DNA from: Acinetobacter phage Ab5
Reading direction: 5' to 3' (one strand)
Length of the DNA stretch: 64,000 bases
Sequence record: PP763257.1
Part shown: positions 1 to 62,268 of the stretch, piece by piece
Position numbering within the stretch: position 1 is the stretch's first letter
Layout of the letters: each line of letters opens with the position of its first letter
Position numbers and translations under genes: made by a program
Notes under the pieces: generated by a model
Seen by the model: only the letters and a program-made list of their open reading frames with translations
Databases searched by the model: none
Told to the model about the DNA's origin: nothing

Positions 1-2
1 AC

Positions 3-164
3 TTATCTGAAATTGGTATGCAAGCTGAAGGGCAAAATAGAACATACATTTTAGGCATCTGTGATGCAAACAACAATACTGTAGAACAAACAGAAAGTGT
101 TATTGGAGAAGAGACTCCTTTAGAAACTTCTTTAGACACTCCTGTGGCAATTGTTCCAGAATAA
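3..164 (+). CDS. 3' end of an upstream structural gene, possibly the tail tube protein. The gene is partial; its start lies outside the window.
   Basis: Frame 3 is open from the window edge to TAA at 162-164. It sits directly upstream of the chaperone/tape-measure genes. Confidence 0.4.
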   Translation, partial: LSEIGMQAEGQNRTYILGICDANNNTVEQTESVIGEETPLETSLDTPVAIVPE

Positions 165-187
165 GAATAAATTTTAGGAGAAATTAA

Positions 188-583
188 ATGTCTACTAAGA
201 CAAAACAAGTTATTAAAACAATTAATGATCGAGCATATGTAATTAACGCCTTTCGTGGAGAGAAGGGTTGGGAATTTCTTCCTCGTGTAGCCAAATACAT
301 TTTCCCATTCATCGGATTACTTGGTGGTGGAGAAGAAATGACAGAAGAAGAAGCTGGTAAGAATCTTATGCTTTTATTGGAAGGTGAAAATGCTAAAGAT
401 TTATCAGCTTTAATTAAAGAATTGGTTGCTGACATTGAGGTGGGTGGTATGCGTATTAACTTCAATGAAGAGTTTGAAGAAAACTATGATGCATTATTAA
501 TTCTAACAATTGAAGTTATTAAATTAAATTACGCTAAATCTTTTCAAAGACTCGTTACGAATTTACAAAGCGTTCTAGCGTAA
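188..583 (+). CDS. tail assembly chaperone (G-like)
   Basis: 131-aa acidic ORF immediately 5' of the tape-measure gene. RBS AGGAG sits upstream of the ATG. The position and size are conserved in long-tailed phages. Confidence 0.5.
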   Translation: MSTKTKQVIKTINDRAYVINAFRGEKGWEFLPRVAKYIFPFIGLLGGGEEMTEEEAGKNLMLLLEGENAKDLSALIKELVADIEVGGMRINFNEEFEENYDALLILTIEVIKLNYAKSFQRLVTNLQSVLA

Positions 584-642
584 GTGAATCGTCAACGAGG
601 GTAAATAAAGCAGAAATAGAGAAGATTGAAAAGACCTTCTCT

Positions 643-828
643 ATGCCTTTAGCTTGGATTTCCATTCTTGATAATGCAGAAACAGATTATGTATCTACAT
701 TACAAAAGCTCAAGTATGAATTAACCGTTGATGATGTTTACGATCTTTTAGAATATCTTGAGTACAAGAAGTGGAAAAATCACGAAGAAATGTTAGCACA
801 GCAAGAACAACATAATAATAAAAGGTAG
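643..828 (+). CDS. possible -1 frameshift extension (GT-like) of the tail assembly chaperone, or an independent small ORF
   Basis: The -1 frame is open from 538 through 828 and overlaps the 3' end of 188..583. The ATG at 643 has no convincing RBS. No canonical slippery heptamer was found. Confidence 0.3.
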   Translation: MPLAWISILDNAETDYVSTLQKLKYELTVDDVYDLLEYLEYKKWKNHEEMLAQQEQHNNKR

Positions 829-833
829 ATAGA

Positions 834-2888
834 ATGCAGATAGCAAGTTTATTCGCATCATTAGGGTTTAAAGTAGACACTAAGGGGTTAGATGCATTCC
901 AATCTAAGCTTCGTGAAGTTCGTGGTGATACAGCACTATTTGCGCGTAATGCTAGAGTTTTAGCTACTAACCTACGTAGTATGTCATCTGGTTTAGACGG
1001 TGTTACTACTCGACTTGATAAACTTTCACTAAAAAGAGCAAATGCTAACATTTCTGAAAGTTATACTGAAGTTGCAAAATCTGTTGCTCGTGTACACAAT
1101 GCTTTAAATGGAATTTCAAATAATCAAAAACGAATTACCTTAAGTTTAGGGAAGATTCATTCATCAGTTAAAGCTGGTGAACCGATTTGGGACAAATACA
1201 AACAATCTGTTCTAGAAACTAAAGCTGCATTACTTCAAGTTAATGGTCAGATGCAACAACTGAGAAAGAATTCAAACATCGGTGTAAGAACTGGTAGCTC
1301 TGGATTCTCTTCTTCTCGAACATCAGCCCCAAGACAACAAAGACCTTTTGGTGGAATGAATCTTGGTGGTAGTGAAGGTTTATTAGCTGGCGGTGGCTTC
1401 TTTAGGGCTATGTTACCTGCTGTAGCAACTGCTGGTGGCTTACCAACATTAGGTTATGCGGTATCTAAGATTGTTGAGCAAGGACGAGAAGTTCAGAAGA
1501 TGGACATCGTTCTTAAAATGGCATCATCTAGCGCTGAAGAGTTCGGTAGAAACTTAGAGTTTGTTAGAAAGACAGCACAAGAAGTTGGTGTTGATGTAAC
1601 AGAGTTTGGTCAAGCATACGCTAAGATGCTTCAAGCAACCAAAGATGTTAAAGGTCTTGGTCTTGAAGATAAAGAGAAAATGTTTAGAGACTTATCAATT
1701 TACATGCGTACAATTGGTAGTTCTGCTGATGATCAGCAAGGTATCTTCCGTGCATTAACACAAATGTTCACTAAAGGTAAAGTTCAAGCTGAAGAACTTT
1801 TACAGATGGCAGAACGTGGTGTACCTGCTGCTATTGAGATTAAGAAAGCTGCTATTGAAGGTCTGAAAATGACTGAGAAGCAGTTTGAATTAGCTCAGAA
1901 GAAAGGCGAACTTGATCCAGCTAAGCTTCTTCCTATTATGTCTGCTAACTTAGCTAAATTAGCTCAAGATAGTGGAGCATACGAGAAAGCATTACAAACA
2001 TCTGCAACAGCACAACAGCGTTTTAAGAATGAGTTAAAACTTCTGTCTGATGAAATATTACAAGGTGGATTAGATCAAGGTCTTAAAAACTTATTTGAAA
2101 ACTTAACTGATTTAATAAAAGTCACCAAAGAAGGTATTCAATGGTTAAAAGGGTTTAAGAAAGGTTTAGATGAAGTTAGTGGTGGTAATTCAGGACTAAT
2201 TCTTAGTATTGCTACACTTTCATTAGTAATATTAAGATTCAGAAAACCCATCATGATTCTCTGGCAATCTTTTAAACTTGTTAGAGCAATGGGTGGTGGA
2301 TTATCAACATTCTTTAGTGGAACATTTGTTAAGAGTATTCTTAGACTTGGTGGTAAGTTATTCTGGTTAGTTACAGCATTTGAAGCTGTTATAGCCATTG
2401 GTAACGCTTTAAATAAAGAAGCCGAAGGAACTCCAACATGGATTAGTTGGTGGATTCTCAACTTAGAGACACTTTATGTAAACGTTGTTTATTATATTGC
2501 TAAGATGCGATATGAGTGGGCTAAGTTCACTAATGATATGAGCAATAACGCCAAGTTATCTTTCTTTGGTGGTGAATTGGAATCTGATAGGATTTTAAAT
2601 AAAGCTTATCAGAAAGGCAGTCAAGGAACTGCTGATCAAAGCAATGCGCCATCATTCAAGGACAGATTAGGTGCAGCTAATGAACTATACGGAATATGGT
2701 ACAAGAAACTCTTAGACGAAATAATTAGCGGACGTTTAGGTAGAATTAGTTATGAACCTTCTCAAATGAATGGTCAAGGAAGATTAGGTTACATTGAGAT
2801 CATGCAAGACGGTAAGAGTGTTGGAAGATTGGATTTAGATTCTGCTGGTAATAACCATGCCAAGATTACATCGGGGACATACTTTTGA
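834..2888 (+). CDS. tail tape measure protein
   Basis: 684 aa with an alpha-helical Ala/Leu/Lys/Gln-rich N-terminal half, Gly-rich and hydrophobic segments, and a typical position after the chaperone pair. Confidence 0.8.
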   Translation: MQIASLFASLGFKVDTKGLDAFQSKLREVRGDTALFARNARVLATNLRSMSSGLDGVTTRLDKLSLKRANANISESYTEVAKSVARVHNALNGISNNQKRITLSLGKIHSSVKAGEPIWDKYKQSVLETKAALLQVNGQMQQLRKNSNIGVRTGSSGFSSSRTSAPRQQRPFGGMNLGGSEGLLAGGGFFRAMLPAVATAGGLPTLGYAVSKIVEQGREVQKMDIVLKMASSSAEEFGRNLEFVRKTAQEVGVDVTEFGQAYAKMLQATKDVKGLGLEDKEKMFRDLSIYMRTIGSSADDQQGIFRALTQMFTKGKVQAEELLQMAERGVPAAIEIKKAAIEGLKMTEKQFELAQKKGELDPAKLLPIMSANLAKLAQDSGAYEKALQTSATAQQRFKNELKLLSDEILQGGLDQGLKNLFENLTDLIKVTKEGIQWLKGFKKGLDEVSGGNSGLILSIATLSLVILRFRKPIMILWQSFKLVRAMGGGLSTFFSGTFVKSILRLGGKLFWLVTAFEAVIAIGNALNKEAEGTPTWISWWILNLETLYVNVVYYIAKMRYEWAKFTNDMSNNAKLSFFGGELESDRILNKAYQKGSQGTADQSNAPSFKDRLGAANELYGIWYKKLLDEIISGRLGRISYEPSQMNGQGRLGYIEIMQDGKSVGRLDLDSAGNNHAKITSGTYF

Positions 2889-3739
2889 TATACACATTAA
2901 TCATTAAAAACTCAGATGGACAAACCTCTTCGGTTATTTCATTTAGCTCTGTTCGATCTTTCTCTGAATCATTAGGTGCTACAACCACCGATAATGTTGT
3001 TGAATACGGATTCCCTGTTTCTGATCACATGTTAGTTAGTAATATTACATTTGACTTGGATGTGATTGTTACAGGTTTTTCAGTGTTTGATGAAAATCTA
3101 GAATTATTTTGGAATGGTTCTGATTTTACAACAAATTCACCAGATCAATTGACTACACAAAATGCACACTTATTAATGAGAAAACAATTAAAGGATTTGA
3201 TTCTTAATCGCATTGTTTTCTCATTACTTATCACAGAAGATAATTCTTTTGTTCAAGATATTAATACCAAAGAAGCACAATTACGTAAGAGTATTGTTGA
3301 TGAGTATGTAAACTGTGTTTGTACAAGTTTAACACTTTCTGAATCTGAAGCAACAAGTGGTGCAATCTTTGCTAAACTAAACATCAAACAGATTCGATCA
3401 GCATTAGTTAAAACAAGAGAACTAGAACAAGGTGAAAGAGTAAGACAAATTGATCGTATTGCTCCAACACCAACAGTATCTTCACAGAATTCTTCTGATG
3501 CGAGTAAAGGTGTTGATTCAGATGGTAATGCTGACTTGTCTAAAGGAACTAAAGACATCTTAGATGGTCAAAATCAAGGTAAATTACCTAAGTCTGGTGA
3601 AACAGGTTTGACACAAGCAGAGATTAACCGAAGACAAGTCGAGTCGAATACTATTGCAACAGAGCATGTAAAAAATCAACAAAGGATGGCTGAAGCAAAA
3701 GCGTTAGACGCTAAGAGAGAACGTGGAGATTTTAGATGA
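2885..3739 (+). CDS. distal tail/baseplate protein
   Basis: ATGA overlap with the tape-measure stop. Its position in the tail module supports the call. Confidence 0.5.
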   Translation: MIYTLIIKNSDGQTSSVISFSSVRSFSESLGATTTDNVVEYGFPVSDHMLVSNITFDLDVIVTGFSVFDENLELFWNGSDFTTNSPDQLTTQNAHLLMRKQLKDLILNRIVFSLLITEDNSFVQDINTKEAQLRKSIVDEYVNCVCTSLTLSESEATSGAIFAKLNIKQIRSALVKTRELEQGERVRQIDRIAPTPTVSSQNSSDASKGVDSDGNADLSKGTKDILDGQNQGKLPKSGETGLTQAEINRRQVESNTIATEHVKNQQRMAEAKALDAKRERGDFR

Positions 3740-4128
3740 TTACAGATACTACAGACATTTGGTACATCATTAAACTCTCCTTATTTAATAACACTAATTA
3801 CTATAATGATATCATAATTGATGGTATCTCTTGTCGATTTACTTTTGAATACAACGAAAGATTAGGGACGAGATATCTTTCTATTGTTACTGCTTCTGGA
3901 ACTGTACTTTTAAGTAAAACACCTTTATTTGAAGATAACGAAATCTATTTAGATAACAATGCTGATCTTATTGGTATTCACGATTGTTTCCTTAAATTAG
4001 TTAAACTTGATCAAACGATTGAGGATGACTTATTAAATTGGCAAGACAATTACATTATTTTTATTAAAGGTGTTTATGATGACATCTACAATGACTATAT
4101 GAATTTTACTAAATCATTAGTCGTTTAA
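3736..4128 (+). CDS. tail/baseplate protein
   Basis: Translationally coupled ORF in the tail module. Confidence 0.45.
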   Translation: MITDTTDIWYIIKLSLFNNTNYYNDIIIDGISCRFTFEYNERLGTRYLSIVTASGTVLLSKTPLFEDNEIYLDNNADLIGIHDCFLKLVKLDQTIEDDLLNWQDNYIIFIKGVYDDIYNDYMNFTKSLVV

Positions 4129-4137
4129 GGAGGGAAT

Positions 4138-5451
4138 GTGGCAGACATTAAGGGCTTTCAAATCGGAAGATTACTTGAAGTCAATATTTATAATTATAAT
4201 AGTAATGAGGTTGTCACATTCTCAGGTTTCGATATTGAGTGTGAATTCTATAAAACAGATGATGCTGTAAATGAAGCTTCGATTGGTAAAGTTGCAATTT
4301 ATAACATGACAGATGAAACATTCAATAAAATTAACATCACAGGATGTGAGTTAGAAGTTAAATTCGGTTATGAAGCTACAGAAGCTAAAGCTCAAAGATT
4401 ATTCTTAGCTTTTGTAACTGCTGTTGATAGACACATTGATGGTAGTAATGTTATCACCGTATTTCAAGTATCTCTTAATTTTAAAGAGTATAACTTCACA
4501 CCAATTACAGTTTCAAAAAAAGAAAAAACTATAGGCTCAATTATCACACAAGTTGGTGAATTCTACGATGCTGTTTTTAAGATTGATTTAGGAAATATTC
4601 CCAAAGACCAACAAAGCAAGGTTACAGAATATATTACAACTGGTTTAATTCCAAAGTTCACATTCAATGGAACACTAGACGAATTCTTAAAAAGAATTAA
4701 TAATGATTTTGGTTTAACAAATCATAATATAAGTGAAGATATTAAAGGAAGTAAAAACAAATTAGTTAAAGAATTAATTTTTACATTCAGAGATAATTAC
4801 GTTCCTATTATTATCAATAAAGTTAACAAACCTTTTGCAAAGATAAAAGAACAACAAGAATTAGATATCTTGTTCCAAAGAGATACTTCGGATGTTGTTA
4901 CAATATTGAATCACGATACAGGGTTATTAGGAACACCACAAGTTGAATATAAAATTCAGCGTGTTTCTGAATATTGGAATTTTGCTGAAACTGATCAACA
5001 GACATTTGAATCTCAGGTAAGACAACAAGACAGGAATATTCGAGAAGCACAAGCTTCATTGAAACGTGCTGAACGAGAAGCTAAAGCGAAAGAAAAAGGC
5101 AAAACATTAAAGCCTAGAAAACCTAGAAAAGCTGGAACAATTTCTGTAAGAAGAAAATACTTAAAAGCTAGGGCTTTACCAAATCCAGCAGTAAGACCTT
5201 TAAGTATCATTGAAATACAATCTAAAATTAAAGAAAATAGTGGATTGTATCGTGTACGAGGTGTTCATTTTAGTATTAACAACTTTAAGCAAGAAGTTTA
5301 TATGGAAATGACATTAGAGAGCGTTGATACAGAAGATAAAGTTGTCTATGTTGATCCAACAACAGAAGGTGATTTCGAAATGAATGGTAGTTTAGGTTAT
5401 GACATCTCTGTTGGTAGTGAAAGTGATATCGAAACAGGAGGTATCGAATAA
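4138..5451 (+). CDS. baseplate/tail protein (XkdQ-position)
   Basis: GTG start after GGAGGG. 437 aa. Located in the tail module. Confidence 0.5.
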   Translation: MADIKGFQIGRLLEVNIYNYNSNEVVTFSGFDIECEFYKTDDAVNEASIGKVAIYNMTDETFNKINITGCELEVKFGYEATEAKAQRLFLAFVTAVDRHIDGSNVITVFQVSLNFKEYNFTPITVSKKEKTIGSIITQVGEFYDAVFKIDLGNIPKDQQSKVTEYITTGLIPKFTFNGTLDEFLKRINNDFGLTNHNISEDIKGSKNKLVKELIFTFRDNYVPIIINKVNKPFAKIKEQQELDILFQRDTSDVVTILNHDTGLLGTPQVEYKIQRVSEYWNFAETDQQTFESQVRQQDRNIREAQASLKRAEREAKAKEKGKTLKPRKPRKAGTISVRRKYLKARALPNPAVRPLSIIEIQSKIKENSGLYRVRGVHFSINNFKQEVYMEMTLESVDTEDKVVYVDPTTEGDFEMNGSLGYDISVGSESDIETGGIE

Positions 5452-14370: not shown

Positions 14371-14508
14371 ACGTCTATTGTTTTATCAAAATGATAAAAT
14401 CGAATTTATCAAATAGATTTACTATAGTTCATTTTGAATTACTGTAGTTCACATTGATAATTTGTTTAATAAGACAAATAGGTTTTAAATATGTTCTAAA
14501 TAAGAGAT

Positions 14509-14537
14509 TTGACAAAAGAAAAAGAAGTGACTATCAT
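14509..14537 (+). promoter_or_regulatory. sigma-A-type promoter
   Basis: TTGACA-N17-TATCAT upstream of the RBS and GTG start at 14566. Confidence 0.55.
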
Positions 14538-14565
14538 TCGATTTGTTTTGTTGTAGGAGGTTTTT

Positions 14566-15444
14566 GTGTTTAAAGGTTTAATTTCAGAAGTAGCAAAAGA
14601 TGCTGGTCGTAGTGCAGCATTAATCATTAATCAATTATTTCAATGGTATAAAGGAAGTAATTCAAAAAAGATTTACCGTACAAATCAAGAGTTACATGAT
14701 GATTTGTGTGGAATCATGTCTACAGCAACAATTCAACGTTGTAAAAAAAGATTGATTGAGAAAGGTTATATTGAAGTTTCTTTTGATAAAGGTTTGAATC
14801 GTGTAACTCACTATTCACTTACAAAGAAAGCTTTAGAATTATTGGATAGCTCTAAAACATCTTCAGAAGCCCGTAGTGAGAAAAAAGAAGGAAAAGGTAG
14901 TGGTGTACCACACACTCCTAAAACATCACCACAACGTGCTAAAACAGGTATTAAAAAGGGTGCTATTGTACACTCATACGGAAATGTCAAATCAATGAAG
15001 GAATGTTTTGAAGAAGGAAGTGATAACAAGAATGCAGATCGTTCTTTAACTCTATCTGAACGACTAGCTCTGATGAAAGGAGAAAAGATTGATTTAAACA
15101 AGCATAATGACGCTTTAGAGCAATGTTTAGATGAAAGTGGTACAAACGTACCAGACAACATTAAAAATGTCTCTATGGAGCTTATAGACAGCTTAAATGA
15201 GGTGTGTAGTGTTAATGAAGAAGATGAACATTTAAATGCTCTATCACAACATGATTACGATGAATGTGATCTTGCTATGTTGAATTCTTTGAATAAGCAA
15301 CAAGAACATTTGACAGATGATAAGTTGACTGTTGGTCAATTATTAGGTAATATTGGTTCTGTATATAAATCAGGTGTGTCAGAAGCTAGAGAAAGAATCT
15401 ATCAGATGTCACAATTACAAAATGGTTACTTGGAGGATTATTGA
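14566..15444 (+). CDS. winged-helix DNA-binding protein, a candidate replication organiser or transcription regulator
   Basis: GTG start after GGAGG. The N-terminal 100 aa have HTH-like character, followed by an acidic C-terminal half. It is the first gene of the replication-side operon. Confidence 0.5.
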   Translation: MFKGLISEVAKDAGRSAALIINQLFQWYKGSNSKKIYRTNQELHDDLCGIMSTATIQRCKKRLIEKGYIEVSFDKGLNRVTHYSLTKKALELLDSSKTSSEARSEKKEGKGSGVPHTPKTSPQRAKTGIKKGAIVHSYGNVKSMKECFEEGSDNKNADRSLTLSERLALMKGEKIDLNKHNDALEQCLDESGTNVPDNIKNVSMELIDSLNEVCSVNEEDEHLNALSQHDYDECDLAMLNSLNKQQEHLTDDKLTVGQLLGNIGSVYKSGVSEARERIYQMSQLQNGYLEDY

Positions 15445-32888: not shown

Positions 32889-32965
32889 GGGCTGTTCGTC
32901 TAATTGGATAAGACATCATAATTCTAGTGTGATTGATGCAGGTTCGAATCCTGTGCAGCCTGCCA
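32889..32965 (+). tRNA. tRNA-Arg (anticodon UCU)
   Basis: Manual fold. Acceptor GGGCTGT/GCAGCCT has G-U pairs at the ends. D-arm GTCT/AGAC with a GG loop. Anticodon stem TCATA/TGTGA, loop ATTCTAG. T-arm GCAGG-TTCGAAT-CCTGT. Discriminator G plus CCA is encoded. Confidence 0.75.
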
Positions 32966-58018: not shown

Positions 58019-58765
58019 TTAACTCACATCATATAAGTCCTCAAGTAATAAATAACCTTGTTTACGTTTTCCATCAACTTCACTAACCACTTGTGTCTTT
58101 CTAACAACAAAATAATTTCTTATATCGTTACCTACAGCTTTTCTGTTTATATTGAGACTATCGTAAGTTTTTTGTAAAACACTTGTGATATGTGATGATG
58201 TATACTTTTTACCGGCACGTAAACAACCTAATTTACTTTTTATCTCTAAGTGGTGGTCTTGGAATTTCAAAGCTAAATTGTATGCGTTAAACAGCTTGGT
58301 TTTATTAAAACCAATAGATTTGATCTTATCAACACCTAATACATCAACAAGGAGTTTATGTTCTTCTGAGTAGTTAGATATGTTTTCCACAGTTATAGTA
58401 TCCCCTACTTCAATAGCTTTTATGTATTTTTTCAAAAGTTTACAAAAATCCACCTTGAACCCACATTTCAAATGTTCGAGTGTATTGACTTTGTTGAGTA
58501 GTCTGTTAAACGGTGGAGAAAGTCTAGTGATACATAACTCTTCGTACTTCAATGATTCTTCTTTCGAGCTGAAATATTCTACAATTTCAACCGTAATACA
58601 ACCATCCTCTCCATTCTGAAAGAAATAGCGATTTAAAGCTTTGTTAGAGCTAGTGCCATGTAGACAATGTTTATATCTTTCACCAGAACCTTGTCCAATG
58701 TAAAGAATTTCACCCTCTAACCCTCGTGCAAAGTAAACATAAAACTTTTTCAAACTTTTACTCAA
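58019..58765 (-). CDS. GIY-YIG homing endonuclease-like protein
   Basis: N-terminal FYVYFARGLEGEILYIGQGSGERYKHC matches the GIY…YIG pattern. Confidence 0.55.
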   Translation of the reverse strand: MSKSLKKFYVYFARGLEGEILYIGQGSGERYKHCLHGTSSNKALNRYFFQNGEDGCITVEIVEYFSSKEESLKYEELCITRLSPPFNRLLNKVNTLEHLKCGFKVDFCKLLKKYIKAIEVGDTITVENISNYSEEHKLLVDVLGVDKIKSIGFNKTKLFNAYNLALKFQDHHLEIKSKLGCLRAGKKYTSSHITSVLQKTYDSLNINRKAVGNDIRNYFVVRKTQVVSEVDGKRKQGYLLLEDLYDVS

Positions 58766-58789
58766 TTAATAATCTCCAATAATTTTACA

Positions 58790-60088
58790 TTAAATGTTTT
58801 CTTCTTGTAGCCAACCTAAGAACAAGTCCTTCATTCTTTTAGACAAGATAGCAAGATTGATCGGTTTTCCATCTCGTATTGCAGACCTCCAAATAAATTG
58901 AAGCATTTCAGATAAAGCAAACACATCAGCATTTATTGGATATCCATAGTCTTGTAAATAACTAGCAACACTTTGATTCGGATATCGGTCATAAGCATGA
59001 ATAACACAAGTTTTATGTCTATAAGCATTCGTTGCTCTTGTGTTTGATGCCAACCAACAAACATTCTCAGGACACTTTTGTATCTTTAACTCTGTATCTA
59101 CTAAACCGCTAGGTTTAATCTTAGCTGCTTTCGACTTAACATCCAGATTACTTCTATTCTTTGGGAATGTATAAAGCAAATCATAACTAGAAGCTCTCCA
59201 CGAACGAGCAATTGACAGAATGTACCCTTCAATATGTTTAATATCTTGTGTAGACATTTTTGAATATGCAGACACAGATAACTTTAAGTCTTTCTTCCAC
59301 TTTTGATTAGTTGGTGAATAAAGATTGATTAATTTAGCTATCTCTTTCTTGCTTGGTACAATTGGTGTAATCTCATCAAATGTTTTATACGGAATCCCCT
59401 TCAACTTTAGAAAACTACTAAGAATATTACCTTCAAACATGTATGTTAAGATAATAGCTCTCTTTGATGATGTAATCAATTTAACAGGAAGCTGTGTAAC
59501 AAACATATCATCTTTACGCTTACTAACGTACAACATCTTGTTTTGAACATGTCTTTTAAACTTACTATATTTATGTCTAAAGTCGTCAAATGCTTTATCT
59601 AAGTTACTATCAATATCCTTACCACACCACGTCAACATTCCGTCATTTTCTTGTACACTAATCACACCCAATTCAATTAATGATGTAACATCTGGTGCTG
59701 AGTATGCATGATAATCATCAATCATTGCAATCTCTTCATCTACAACTAACACATAATTGTGTTTCTCCATTTCACTAAAATGCTCATCTGTCATGTTTAG
59801 GTATAGATTATGTGTACATGTAATATTAGCACCAATTCTCAATAATTCTAACAGGTGACTACCTTTTGTGTCATGATGGTTATCCTCATCATCTCTCTTG
59901 GTTTCTGGAGCTACAAATCTAGTTAGTGGACAAGCTTGCTGAATACGACCACCATCTTTAACTTCTTCTAGGAGTGGTGATATATAAAAGAATTTATATA
60001 TGTGATTATTCTCTTCCATCCATTTACAAATCTTAGACGTCTTATGTGACCCCATCATAGCATCTACAATCTCTACAAAATTACTCAT
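58790..60088 (-). CDS. hypothetical protein with a degenerate P-loop and a Walker-B-like motif. It is the first gene of the leftward operon.
   Basis: Motif VDAMMGSHKTS near the N-terminus, hhhhDE motif NYVLVVDEE. 432 aa. The family could not be assigned. Confidence 0.5.
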   Translation of the reverse strand: MSNFVEIVDAMMGSHKTSKICKWMEENNHIYKFFYISPLLEEVKDGGRIQQACPLTRFVAPETKRDDEDNHHDTKGSHLLELLRIGANITCTHNLYLNMTDEHFSEMEKHNYVLVVDEEIAMIDDYHAYSAPDVTSLIELGVISVQENDGMLTWCGKDIDSNLDKAFDDFRHKYSKFKRHVQNKMLYVSKRKDDMFVTQLPVKLITSSKRAIILTYMFEGNILSSFLKLKGIPYKTFDEITPIVPSKKEIAKLINLYSPTNQKWKKDLKLSVSAYSKMSTQDIKHIEGYILSIARSWRASSYDLLYTFPKNRSNLDVKSKAAKIKPSGLVDTELKIQKCPENVCWLASNTRATNAYRHKTCVIHAYDRYPNQSVASYLQDYGYPINADVFALSEMLQFIWRSAIRDGKPINLAILSKRMKDLFLGWLQEENI

Positions 60089-60394
60089 CTATATTATTTA
60101 CCTCATATTATTAAAATGACAAACAATATAACACAATAGTATTTATAAAACAACCAATACAATATCAATTGATTAATAAATACACAATTTGTAACATTGG
60201 CGCAATATTCCTAAGGGGATAGGAGATTTCCAGTGTATTTTGTGGTCTTAGTTTTTGGGAAGGTTTACTATAAGGAAAAGGTGTGTAATCTATTGATTAA
60301 TAAGGAATAAAAAATGAGTTTGTAAGGTAATGCCTTACTGGGAATGTAAAACATACTAATTGTATACTTTATGTAACTTTAATATTAACACTAA

Positions 60395-60945
60395 TAAAGA
60401 CGTAGTATTGACCTAGTATATGAACGTAGTGATATGACACTTTAAATCAAACACTTATATAAGGATAGTGTTATCTTAATAGCTAATAGTGAACATGTGT
60501 ACACTTAAAAGATAATAGTAAGTTATCAGTAGTGTATTAATAATACCACCAGTAAGGTGTATCAGTAGTGTACATCAGTAGTGCTCTATTAGTGTATCTA
60601 TAAGGGATAACACTAGTGTTATAGTATTATTGAGAACAACTTTAGATTATCTTTAGTGTTGTTGTAGTGTTGGTAAAATACTATCGTAGTGTTAGTAGAA
60701 GATTACTGTAGTGTTATTGTAGTGTTAATCACCTTAGAAAAATAAATACAACTACTTTAGTGTAAAATAATTTAATAAAATTAAAATTAATTTAAATTAT
60801 TTTTAATTAGTTACAATTACATAAAAATAAACTTAATTATTGACACCTTATTATTGACTTTACCCTACTTTAGTGTATATTAGTGTTGGTATTAGTGTTA
60901 GTACTAGTTGTAACACTAGTGTTATTGTAGTGATAGGCATGATCT
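60395..60945. repeat. array of at least 22 TAGTGT(T/A) iterons, several phased at about 11 bp, including two identical 14-bp palindromes TAACACTAGTGTTA (60607-60620 and 60910-60923)
   Basis: Direct reading of the sequence. Examples are tttagtgttgttgtagtgttggt, cgtagtgttagtag and tgtagtgttattgtagtgttaatc. Confidence 0.8.
60760..60845. other. block of more than 90% A+T flanked by iteron clusters (candidate DNA unwinding element)
   Basis: aaaataatttaataaaattaaaattaatttaaattatttttaattagttacaattacataaaaataaac. Confidence 0.5.
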
Positions 60946-61196
60946 AAGAGCTACAATTAAGCACAAACTATGTTGTTCTTCTTTGTTATTTAGTGTATTG
61001 TGTTATAATGAACGAAGTGATATGATGTTTGGTGTTGATGTGTTGTTGTTTGCTCCTGATCAAAGATCAGCTTGATACGAGCATTAGATCATTCTTTGTT
61101 GTGTTGTAGGATATTCCTAATGTTGAAAACAAAATGCCGTTGCTTTTGACCCATAGGGGTATCCTTAGTTAAATTGTTGCTTTACTGGAGTATTAT

Positions 61197-61406
61197 ATGT
61201 TGTTATTTAAGTTATTTATTATAGGATCATTAGTTTGTGTATTCTTAACCTTTTTCTTTATGGTGATTGGTGTTTGTTATGATTTTAACCAACCTAAGTG
61301 GATTGAAAAGATTATAGATTATTTATCAATCTTTACATTATTTTTGTGTTTAGTGTGGTTGTTAATCATATTTGTTGGTTTAAGTATTTCAGTATTGACA
61401 GCTTAG
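61197..61406 (+). CDS. small hydrophobic two-TM protein
   Basis: 69 aa. It is the only ORF in the 1.85-kb control region. Confidence 0.35.
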   Translation: MLLFKLFIIGSLVCVFLTFFFMVIGVCYDFNQPKWIEKIIDYLSIFTLFLCLVWLLIIFVGLSISVLTA

Positions 61407-61855
61407 TAGACTATAATTATTAAAATCTCTAAGGCTTACTCTCGCGTGAGCCTGTGAGAGAAATTTTTGGGGAATTTTGCAAAAATAATTTAGAAATATA
61501 CACAATGAATTATTTTACCACTCTGAAATTAAAAATAATAATTTATCTTTTAGTATAATCACTTTACAAAAATAGTAATTATTTTCTGTTACATTCTTGA
61601 CTTCTTTTTCTTGTTGTGTTATTTACACGCGTTTTTCATTTATAAATAAAGAAAAGACCTGCACGGCGCTCTAATACGTCTTTAAGCGTGTGTTTTGATA
61701 TGTTTCACTACGTTCAACCGTATGTGTATGTTAGCTTTAGGGGTGTTTTGAGATAAGGATCATCTTTATTAGAATAAATATTGTAATGTTTTAATGATTA
61801 ACTCATTGTTTTATAAGAATTAGATAAAAAATATAAAAATAATTTAAAATAGTTG

Positions 61856-61884
61856 TTGACACATTAGAGAGAAATTGTTTTAAT
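61856..61884 (+). promoter_or_regulatory. rightward promoter
   Basis: TTGTTGACAC followed by a 17-nt spacer and an extended -10 TGtTTTAAT. Confidence 0.45.
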
Positions 61885-61950
61885 AGCTTCATACCGAACG
61901 AGATGTCGTTCAACCAAGCAATAACGCTTAAACATAGAAGGTAGAACATC

Positions 61951-62268
61951 ATGGAATACAAAATCTCTCAATCAGTTAAACAACATGTTAATGCTGCTAA
62001 ATTGATTCAAAAGGCTGCTAAATTAGGAATGAATTTAGATGGTTATGGTTTCTTAGATTATAACTCAACTTATGGTAACACATACTTGTGGTTAGAAGAC
62101 TATATGTTCACACTATATATTAGTGATTTTGATAACACAATTAAAGCATTATACACTTGTAGTTATGATGGTGAAGAGTGGGAGCGTAATGCTGGAACAT
62201 CATTAGATAAGCTTGAAGCTTGGGCATTACGTTGTTACAAGAAATCTGAAAAGAAAGAAGGTAAATAA
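61951..62268 (+). CDS. hypothetical protein
   Basis: RBS AAGGTAG upstream. First gene of the rightward array. Confidence 0.5.
   Translation: MEYKISQSVKQHVNAAKLIQKAAKLGMNLDGYGFLDYNSTYGNTYLWLEDYMFTLYISDFDNTIKALYTCSYDGEEWERNAGTSLDKLEAWALRCYKKSEKKEGK

Follow-up and report, generated by a model that had tools for sequence, protein, structure and literature searches.

A TAGTG repeat array around the inferred left genome end of Acinetobacter phage Ab5: a candidate terminus- and packaging-associated protein-binding locus

Here we analyse a short-repeat array in Acinetobacter phage Ab5 (PP763257.1), from which one stretch of 64,000 nucleotides, hereafter the window, was studied. The source phage is a myovirus of Acinetobacter baumannii that belongs to the B9/TaPaz group, and the window has a GC content of 32.5%, with 32.6% reported for TaPaz and B9 (PMC8228797). 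Between positions 60395 and 60945 one strand carries 19 copies of the core TAGTG, and the position equivalent to the genome end of two deposited relatives falls among them. With somewhat less than even confidence, we propose that the array is a terminus- and packaging-associated cluster of protein-binding sites that overlaps divergent early promoters and surrounds the left boundary of a long direct terminal repeat. A preliminary description, made from the sequence alone, had seen a candidate lytic origin or master regulatory locus. By homology, the genome would have its left physical end at this locus and the early region would begin here, and this is our main correction to the origin reading.

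Results

The genome end of two relatives falls inside the array

Positions 1-4915 of phage B9 are identical to its positions 88727-93641, with 0 mismatches. This is an exact direct terminal repeat of 4,915 bp, and the genes within it are duplicated in the B9 gene tables as well. Similarly, positions 1-3972 of Ab3-TPeters recur at 91811-95782, giving an exact direct terminal repeat of 3,972 bp. The two genomes were deposited independently, by different groups. When transferred to the window, the left boundary of the B9 repeat, which separates GTAGTGTTA from ATCACCTTAG, lies between 60727 and 60728. This is precisely the edge of the last unit of the left array, TAGTGTTA (60720-60727), which stops at the B9-equivalent cut. 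The left boundary of the Ab3-TPeters repeat lies between 60737 and 60738, 10 bp to the right of that of B9 and inside the array. The left physical end inferred for Ab5 therefore spans 60727..60738, from the B9-type to the Ab3-TPeters-type position. The right boundaries of the two repeats agree within 11 bp, and the Ab3-TPeters repeat is displaced inward by about 10 bp at either end, which looks like a technical effect and not a biological one. The records of TaPaz and phiAB441 are circular-type assemblies and are uninformative on ends. The window reaches 3.3 kb into the repeat, and the terminal repeat of Ab5 itself is assigned by homology.

The cut core, the 13-mer GTTAATCACCTTA, occurs once in the window and is present in B9, Ab3-TPeters, phiAB441, MD-2021a, BS46 and Phab24, while TaPaz has a one-base variant (CCTGAG for CCTTAG). 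The proteins of BS46 are about 63% identical to those of this phage group at the median, and the survival of GTTAATCACCTTA despite this divergence suggests that the cut core is under strong constraint.

The left array (60403..60727, + strand) consists of 13 TAGTG cores and 4 degenerate TAGTA units and occupies unique DNA just outside the terminal repeat. It therefore abuts the right-hand copy of the repeat and every concatemer junction. Beyond the cut, the terminal repeat opens with an AT-rich block of ~120 bp (60728..60853; 86.5% A+T) that includes a single unit, at 60758 (position +30). The best 85-bp stretch of the block, 60757-60841, is 92.9% A+T, in agreement with the preliminary description, which had noted an 85-bp block of more than 90% A+T. 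The right array (60871..60937, + strand) holds 5 TAGTG cores and a TAGTTG unit, spaced 10-12 bp apart, and is found within the terminal repeat downstream of the promoter-like site P_R1. Read along a concatemer, the order is thus a leftward promoter-like block, ~13 same-strand units, the cut, ~120 bp of AT-rich DNA and a rightward promoter-like site, followed by 5-6 units, two more promoter-like sites and small early genes.

The opposite end of the repeat is built differently. The right boundary, which is outside the window, lies in a convergent non-coding gap of ~1 kb (B9, L006, 4720-5200). A block of ~190 bp just inside it is nearly invariant, and outside it is a 225-bp G-poor tract (9 G, 101 A and 67 C) with AACAC-type motifs. 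Beyond this tract there is a DnaA-box-like sequence, TTATCCACC, conserved in B9, Ab3-TPeters and TaPaz. The region recalls T5, whose terminal repeat has at its inner end an injection-stop region rich in repeats and DnaA boxes.

Size, motif and phasing of the array

The + strand of the whole 64-kb window contains 80 TAGTG, and 19 of these are the cores in the 551 bp from 60395 to 60945. From the remainder of the window, 0.53 per strand would be expected in a region of this size (Poisson, 2e-23), and when the dinucleotides of the region were shuffled 2,000 times, 2.6 +/- 1.5 copies resulted, with a maximum of 9. The repeat array reported by the preliminary description is therefore real and far above chance, also relative to shuffled sequence of the same dinucleotide composition. 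Only 2 copies lie on the - strand of the region, both of them at palindrome centres, giving a strand ratio of 19 to 2. Elsewhere in the window no 550-bp stretch holds more than 4 TAGTG, and pairs 9-14 bp apart are absent from the 64 kb outside the array. The number of TAGTG outside the gap equals the Markov expectation for the window, such that the core is neither avoided nor enriched there. No second short-repeat array was found in the window or in the first 50 kb of B9.

Across six phages the unit has the consensus (G/T)TAGTGT(T/A), with information limited to 7-8 bp. Some of the earlier figures require revision. At least 22 copies of (G/T)TAGTG(T/A)(T/A) had been claimed; we counted 14, alongside 18 of TAGTG(T/A)(T/A) and 25 of TAGT(G/A), although the two example runs quoted at the time do read as written. 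The gene-free stretch, put at 550 bp, is in fact a gap of 1,108 bp (60089-61196) between a leftward 432-amino-acid (aa) open reading frame (ORF) and a rightward 69-aa ORF. There is no ORF longer than 30 aa in this gap, and 59500-62000 gave no Rfam match at E <= 1 that would point to a non-coding RNA.

The units had also been said to lie on one helical face. This holds for short runs, since 7 of the 19 neighbour spacings measure 10-13 bp, an enrichment with p about 0.001. It does not hold for the array as a whole: the best single period, 12.2 bp, gives no fit (p = 0.30), and phasing is confined to runs of 2-5 units. Two identical 14-bp palindromes some 300 bp apart, which had likewise been described, are present as stated. 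The sequence TAACACTAGTGTTA occurs exactly twice in the window, at 60608..60621 and 60911..60924, 303 bp apart. The first copy is absent from all five relatives. At the second, B9, TaPaz, Ab3-TPeters and MD-2021a keep the CACTAGTG core in place, such that the exact 14-bp palindrome is particular to the window and the relatives retain only the core, in the right array. Oriented, locally phased and of conserved density in six phages, the array plausibly represents a set of sites for a DNA-binding protein.

Conservation of the locus

The array is carried by all five close relatives, namely B9, TaPaz, Ab3-TPeters, phiAB441 and MD-2021a. Within 300 bp to the left of the cut the six phages have 7-13 + strand units. 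Within about 400 bp to the right there are 6-8 in B9, TaPaz, Ab3-TPeters and MD-2021a and 1 in phiAB441, and the right array must therefore be dispensable in at least one isolate. Units are found on both sides of the cut in all six phages, with one at +30 in 6/6 and one at -8 in 5/6. Core columns are conserved at 0.72 and spacers at 0.66 (p = 0.07), and the alignment indicates that individual units turn over while their total number is maintained.

The strongest conservation, above that of the arrays themselves, is seen at the cut and in the ~120 bp that follow. Column identity among the six phages is mostly 92-100% over 60720-60840, with a weaker 20-bp bin (0.78) at 60780-60799, and the surrounding non-coding DNA is about 77-80% identical. 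The AT block is therefore invariant in sequence and not merely AT-rich. At the other end of the left array is a conserved anchor, Block L (60360..60400), with a column identity of 88-98% in the six phages. Block L is also recognisable in BS46 and Phab24, which in addition keep GTTAATCACCTTA and parts of the AT block, and it is retained where the left-hand gene module is exchanged.

In phiAB441 (L004, 4630-4700, compared with 60850-60990 of the window) some 140 bp are missing, and with them P_R1 and the right array in its entirety; the AT block is joined directly to an extended -10 element. Further afield, no additional relatives emerged when boundary or AT-block patterns were scanned against IMG/VR (twice) and against metagenomes (once), and the cluster-13 phages AM24 and P577 are not syntenic at the locus. 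Upstream of a YonV-like gene in Vibrio phage VH-8 (L021, 5480-5700) we observed CACCTTAGA, with three AGTGTT-containing units before it and AT-rich DNA after it. The site may be a distant counterpart of the terminus element, on an alignment that is unreliable. Neither the TaPaz and BS46 papers nor a 2024 review mentions the termini or the array.

Promoter-like sites and the early region

Block L harbours an inverted unit, TTAACACTAA (60385-60394), together with the leftward sigma-70-like site TTAATA-18-TACAAT (60388..60359), a consensus match only. The inverted unit overlies the -35 hexamer of this site. On the other side of the cut, P_R1 (60854..60881, + strand) is a sigma-70-like promoter sequence, TTGACT-16-TATATT, with 10/12 consensus matches. 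It has a TAGTG unit in its spacer, and the right array begins at its -10 element. Equivalents of its hexamers are found in TaPaz, MD-2021a and B9, and they are deleted in phiAB441. Next comes an isolated unit at 60991 and, read from the sequence, the extended -10 element TGTTATAAT (61001-61009) of a putative P_R2; the two together occupy 60991..61009 on the + strand. TaPaz and MD-2021a have the element unchanged, and phiAB441 has kept it. Because our promoter scan needs a -35 hexamer, P_R2 was not called by it. A third promoter-like site, TTGACC-18-TAAATT (61146..61175, + strand; 9/12 matches), lies just before the first ORF in a region conserved in TaPaz, Ab3-TPeters and MD-2021a. Overall the scan found 11 promoter-like matches, compared with 10.9 in shuffles, and units overlap the hexamers at 60388..60359 and 60854-60881. 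Of the two roles that the preliminary description had offered, a regulatory or binding locus thus remains plausible, given that units overlap sigma-70-like sites on both sides of the divergent region, whereas the origin is unsupported.

The first gene of the terminal repeat (61197..61406, + strand) encodes 69 aa and is followed, up to the end of the window, by further small rightward ORFs of early type. Its product has no family match. In B9 the homologue is duplicated with the terminal repeat, as AB9_001 and AB9_157.

An 18-bp direct repeat, ATGAACG(T/A)AGTGATATGA, occurs at 60420-60437 and 61008-61025, 588 bp apart, with 17/18 positions identical. Each copy directly follows a -10-like hexamer (TAGTAT or TATAAT), and both are conserved in relatives. 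The repeats could belong to two promoters whose transcripts begin with the same sequence, one of them reading into the left array. Moreover, the leader of the first early ORF contains a hairpin, CTGATC-AAA-GATCAG, at 61056-61070. Its counterpart is CTAAGAC-TGTC-GTCTTAG in B9, TaPaz and Ab3-TPeters and a third variant in MD-2021a, the stem being preserved through changes on both sides. The leader as a whole (61014-61200) folds no better than shuffles (z = -1.15).

Neighbouring genes and candidate binding proteins

To the left of the array, Ab5, B9 and phiAB441 carry a - strand module (58019-60088 in the window) that encodes a YonV-like protein of 432 aa and a GIY-YIG-like protein of 248 aa. TaPaz has a diverged version of it. 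In Ab3-TPeters and MD-2021a (L003, 5028-7311; L005, 1492-3775) the position is occupied by a + strand module encoding a UvrD-type helicase and a 269-aa protein with a weak helix-turn-helix (HTH) match. Despite this swap, the array element begins at the same conserved block in both phages. The P-loop protein at 58790-60088, which the preliminary description had named as a candidate binder, is the YonV-like protein (phrog_2467), a family found widely among phages, SPbeta-like ones included. Ab3-TPeters and MD-2021a keep the array, yet in their annotated neighbourhoods the helicase module stands in place of this protein, and we no longer consider it a candidate. The suggested resemblance to a partition site also found no backing, as none of the neighbours of the array matches a partition family (ParA/ParB or ParM/ParR) in a search restricted to this neighbourhood.

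Two ORFs upstream of TerL, of 117 and 221 aa, have no Pfam or PHROG match. The larger (AB9_038 in B9; L006, 14773-15438, outside the window) opens the late operon 1.2 kb upstream of TerL. All phages with the array share it at 92-94% identity, compared with 46-47% for BS46 and Phab24. By eye, AB9_038 has a GIY-YIG-like VYLFY...VYVHYG motif and possibly a C-terminal HTH, and the AlphaFold model of a homologue was unusable (predicted local distance difference test score of 46). We also sought a binder by covariation with the array. The initiator-like protein described below (32% identity in BS46) and the 221-aa protein (47%) seemed outliers, but this approach is without power: proteome-wide, ~50 ORFs are conserved in TaPaz and diverged or absent in BS46, where the median identity is 63%.

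The window also contains a single tRNA-Arg(TCT) gene, at 32889-32965, and TaPaz is reported to have a single tRNA-Arg(TCT) too.

The initiator-like protein

The second candidate binder of the preliminary description is a winged-HTH protein of 292 aa (14566-15444). It is initiator-like, with matches to phrog_428 (6e-10), the O-like phrog_678 (4e-7) and DnaD-like proteins (1e-7), and on the basis of these matches the phage probably has an initiator-dependent origin somewhere. Among close phages its N-terminal domain occurs as two alleles, about 50% identical by manual count on the alignment. The putative recognition helix and wing are similar between the two alleles, and the C-terminal two-thirds of the protein are much more conserved than the N-terminal domain.

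The 180 bp upstream of the gene (14380-15444 covers both in the window) are hypervariable, with lineage-specific short repeats beside a conserved TTGACA promoter. In Ab5 these are TTACTATAGTTCA and TTACTGTAGTTCA, 21 bp apart; TTACTRTAGTTCA is present twice here, and AM24 has a 20-bp repeat twice. The region is a candidate operator or origin. A 12-mer, TGTAGTGTTAAT, is shared by the cut unit and the initiator gene (15205-15216), and an 11-mer, ATTACTGTAGT, is shared with the upstream repeat of the initiator. Neither is conserved in relatives and both were treated as chance.

Discussion

We propose the following mechanism for the array as a terminus and packaging element. A phage-encoded DNA-binding protein, most likely a small terminase or a packaging accessory protein, would polymerise on the phased units to the left and right of the cut. 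Once bound, it would bend or wrap the DNA and present GTTAATCACCTTA and the AT-rich core to the terminase nuclease, and the complex would fix the left genome end, comparable to the small terminase subunit (TerS) on the cut-flanking repeats of P1 pac or SPP1 pac. Because units overlap promoter-like sites on both flanks, the same complex would damp early transcription once concatemers form. On the infecting genome the left-end copy of the promoter would lack the upstream array and be free to fire. Adjacency of left array and promoter is limited to the right-end copy and to concatemers, the substrate of packaging, and this arrangement suggests a timing argument for the proposal. We infer protein binding, the identity of the binder, the link to terminase and the promoter function alike.

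Several observations speak for a role at the terminus. The repeat boundaries of two relatives fall 10 bp apart inside the array, units are kept on both sides of the cut in all six phages, conservation is strongest at the cut and in the DNA just after it, no second short-repeat array was found, and exchange of the left-hand gene module leaves the element undisturbed. T7, compared below, offers a precedent. Other observations weigh against this role. The genome ends are the ends of deposited records of relatives, from which those of Ab5 are projected by homology. No terminase small subunit or other binder was recognised. BS46 and Phab24 are without the TAGTG array and have a few AGAACAY and GGAATG repeats in its place; since both keep the cut core, the array would be a lineage-specific layer and not the minimal terminus signal. 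phiAB441 lacks the right array. Moreover, there is no TAGTG array at the right repeat boundary of B9, and hence the units are not a general cutting signal. Finally, units that overlap promoter hexamers fit a pure repressor equally well.

This last point leads to an unlikely, although not negligible, alternative, namely an operator array for the shut-off or timing of the divergent early promoters. Here a repressor or co-opted factor would spread cooperatively and occlude host-type promoters, and the nearby genome end would be incidental, as early promoters sit near the first-injected end. Units do overlap the leftward -35 hexamer and the P_R1 spacer, with the right array starting at the P_R1 -10 element. 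Short direct and inverted units are typical of small repressor arrays, such as the omega heptads and the ParR iterons on parC, and the three tandem rightward promoter-like sites with their small ORFs resemble the T7 A1-A3 early region. However, the promoter calls are consensus matches that are no commoner than in shuffled sequence, and 13 units over 300 bp upstream of the cut far exceed the number required to occlude a promoter. In the infecting genome, the left-end promoter copy comes without the left array, conservation peaks at the cut and AT block rather than at the promoter hexamers, and a candidate repressor was not found.

We regard an iteron-type lytic origin, in which the initiator-like protein would bind the units and melt the AT-rich block, as improbable. 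It is true that the AT-rich block is flanked by repeats, that the phage encodes an O/DnaD-like initiator and that this is the sole repeat array found. Furthermore, array-less BS46 has a strongly diverged initiator, with 32% identity and an unalignable N-terminus. Cumulative GC skew turns near 60,000, but it tracks gene orientation throughout the window and does not discriminate. The origin architecture claimed by the preliminary description is nevertheless not supported: the units measure 7-8 bp and not the 17-22 bp of iterons, no DnaA box within one mismatch was found in 60089-61196, and the initiator gene is 46 kb from the array. Each lineage, including AM24, has its own short repeats just upstream of that gene, beside the conserved promoter, and these are a better place for its cognate sites than the array. 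Both N-terminal alleles of the initiator occur among phages that share the TAGTG motif, and the BS46 contrast is without statistical power, as dozens of ORFs show the same pattern. An origin would also leave unexplained why the genome end lies exactly at the edge of a unit.

Least probable of the three is that the array is a by-product without a dedicated binder, generated and continually reshuffled at a terminus prone to recombination, through slippage, unequal exchange or end repair, or that its role is in DNA entry or end handling and not in packaging. Units turn over fast, with cores barely above spacers; the array expands and contracts between phages, to the point that half of it is deleted in phiAB441; and BS46 and Phab24 manage without it. 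On the other hand, motif, strand and position relative to the cut are kept in six phages, with 7-13 and 6-8 units on the two sides, at a surrounding identity of ~77-80%. The strand bias is extreme, and neighbour spacings of 10-13 bp are enriched. Maintenance of unit number, strand and position in six phages thus makes a by-product less likely.

The terminus and packaging proposal can be extended, though only as a long shot. One phage protein, bound to units across the concatemer junction, could fix the terminase cut, silence the divergent early promoters and prime or bound the copying of the 4-5 kb repeat. If true, this three-job complex would act as an organiser of the termini in myoviruses with long terminal repeats, a group in which hardly any end-formation signals are known.

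More broadly, the recognition, cutting and duplication of multi-kilobase direct terminal repeats are poorly understood outside T7. The locus described here offers a compact and conserved candidate signal, comprising a unique cut core, an invariant 120-bp leader and two arrays of a 7-bp unit. It occurs in therapeutic-type A. baumannii phages and is of practical use in deciding where to open and annotate these genomes. It also advises caution, as repeats and an AT block at a divergent gap in a phage genome are not by themselves evidence of an origin.

Comparison with known systems places the array in context. Iteron origins, such as lambda ori in gene O and plasmid oriV, share with it direct repeats beside an AT-rich stretch and an encoded O/DnaD-like initiator. 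They differ in having units of about 19 bp, rather than 7-8 bp, and in their location in or beside the initiator gene; here there are no DnaA boxes and the genome terminus lies inside the array. ParR/parC of plasmid R1 and the omega heptads likewise have many short direct units, some inverted, at a promoter core, with a spacing of about 7-11 bp. However, no partition or omega-type genes were seen adjoining the array, and the context is that of a lytic phage.

The pac sites of P1 and SPP1 are closer. In P1 pac the cut is flanked by TGATCA/G hexamers, and SPP1 has phased small-terminase-binding repeats in pacL, pacC and pacR, with a pac site that overlaps promoters. As in these phages, a short motif forms two clusters, one to either side of a cleavage region, and the intervening DNA is bent or AT-rich; the units at -8 (5/6) and +30 (6/6) flank the cleavage position taken from the deposited record ends. 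In P1 and SPP1, however, packaging is headful and the ends are permuted, whereas the deposited relatives of Ab5 have fixed ends and an exact repeat. In addition, no TerS was recognised here and binding to the units is a prediction only.

The closest known architecture is that of T7. In the T7 sequence, 7-bp CCTAAAG/TAAAG units with 13-bp spacing run from 175 to 334, directly after the 160-bp terminal repeat; the early promoters A1-A3 follow this array, and CCTAA(A/G)G units precede the right repeat copy. These short-repeat arrays are reportedly the SRL and SRR of Dunn and Studier in 1983, and their function is not firmly established in T7 either. Both phages have direct units of ~7 bp about one helical turn apart (13 bp in T7, 10-13 bp here), in an array beside the boundary of a direct terminal repeat, followed by tandem early promoters of the host RNA polymerase type, predicted ones in Ab5, and early genes. 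Within or beside the array there is also a leftward promoter, A0, in T7 and a leftward promoter-like site in Ab5. The two motifs, CCTAAAG and TAGTGT, show no sequence similarity, and T7 is a podovirus with a different host, whereas Ab5 belongs with myoviruses of ~90 kb. Moreover, the T7 repeat is 160 bp long with arrays on both outer sides, in contrast to a repeat of 4-5 kb with both arrays at its left boundary, one outside and one inside. Taken together, we classify the Ab5 array with the short-repeat arrays adjacent to terminal repeats and with pac-like sites.

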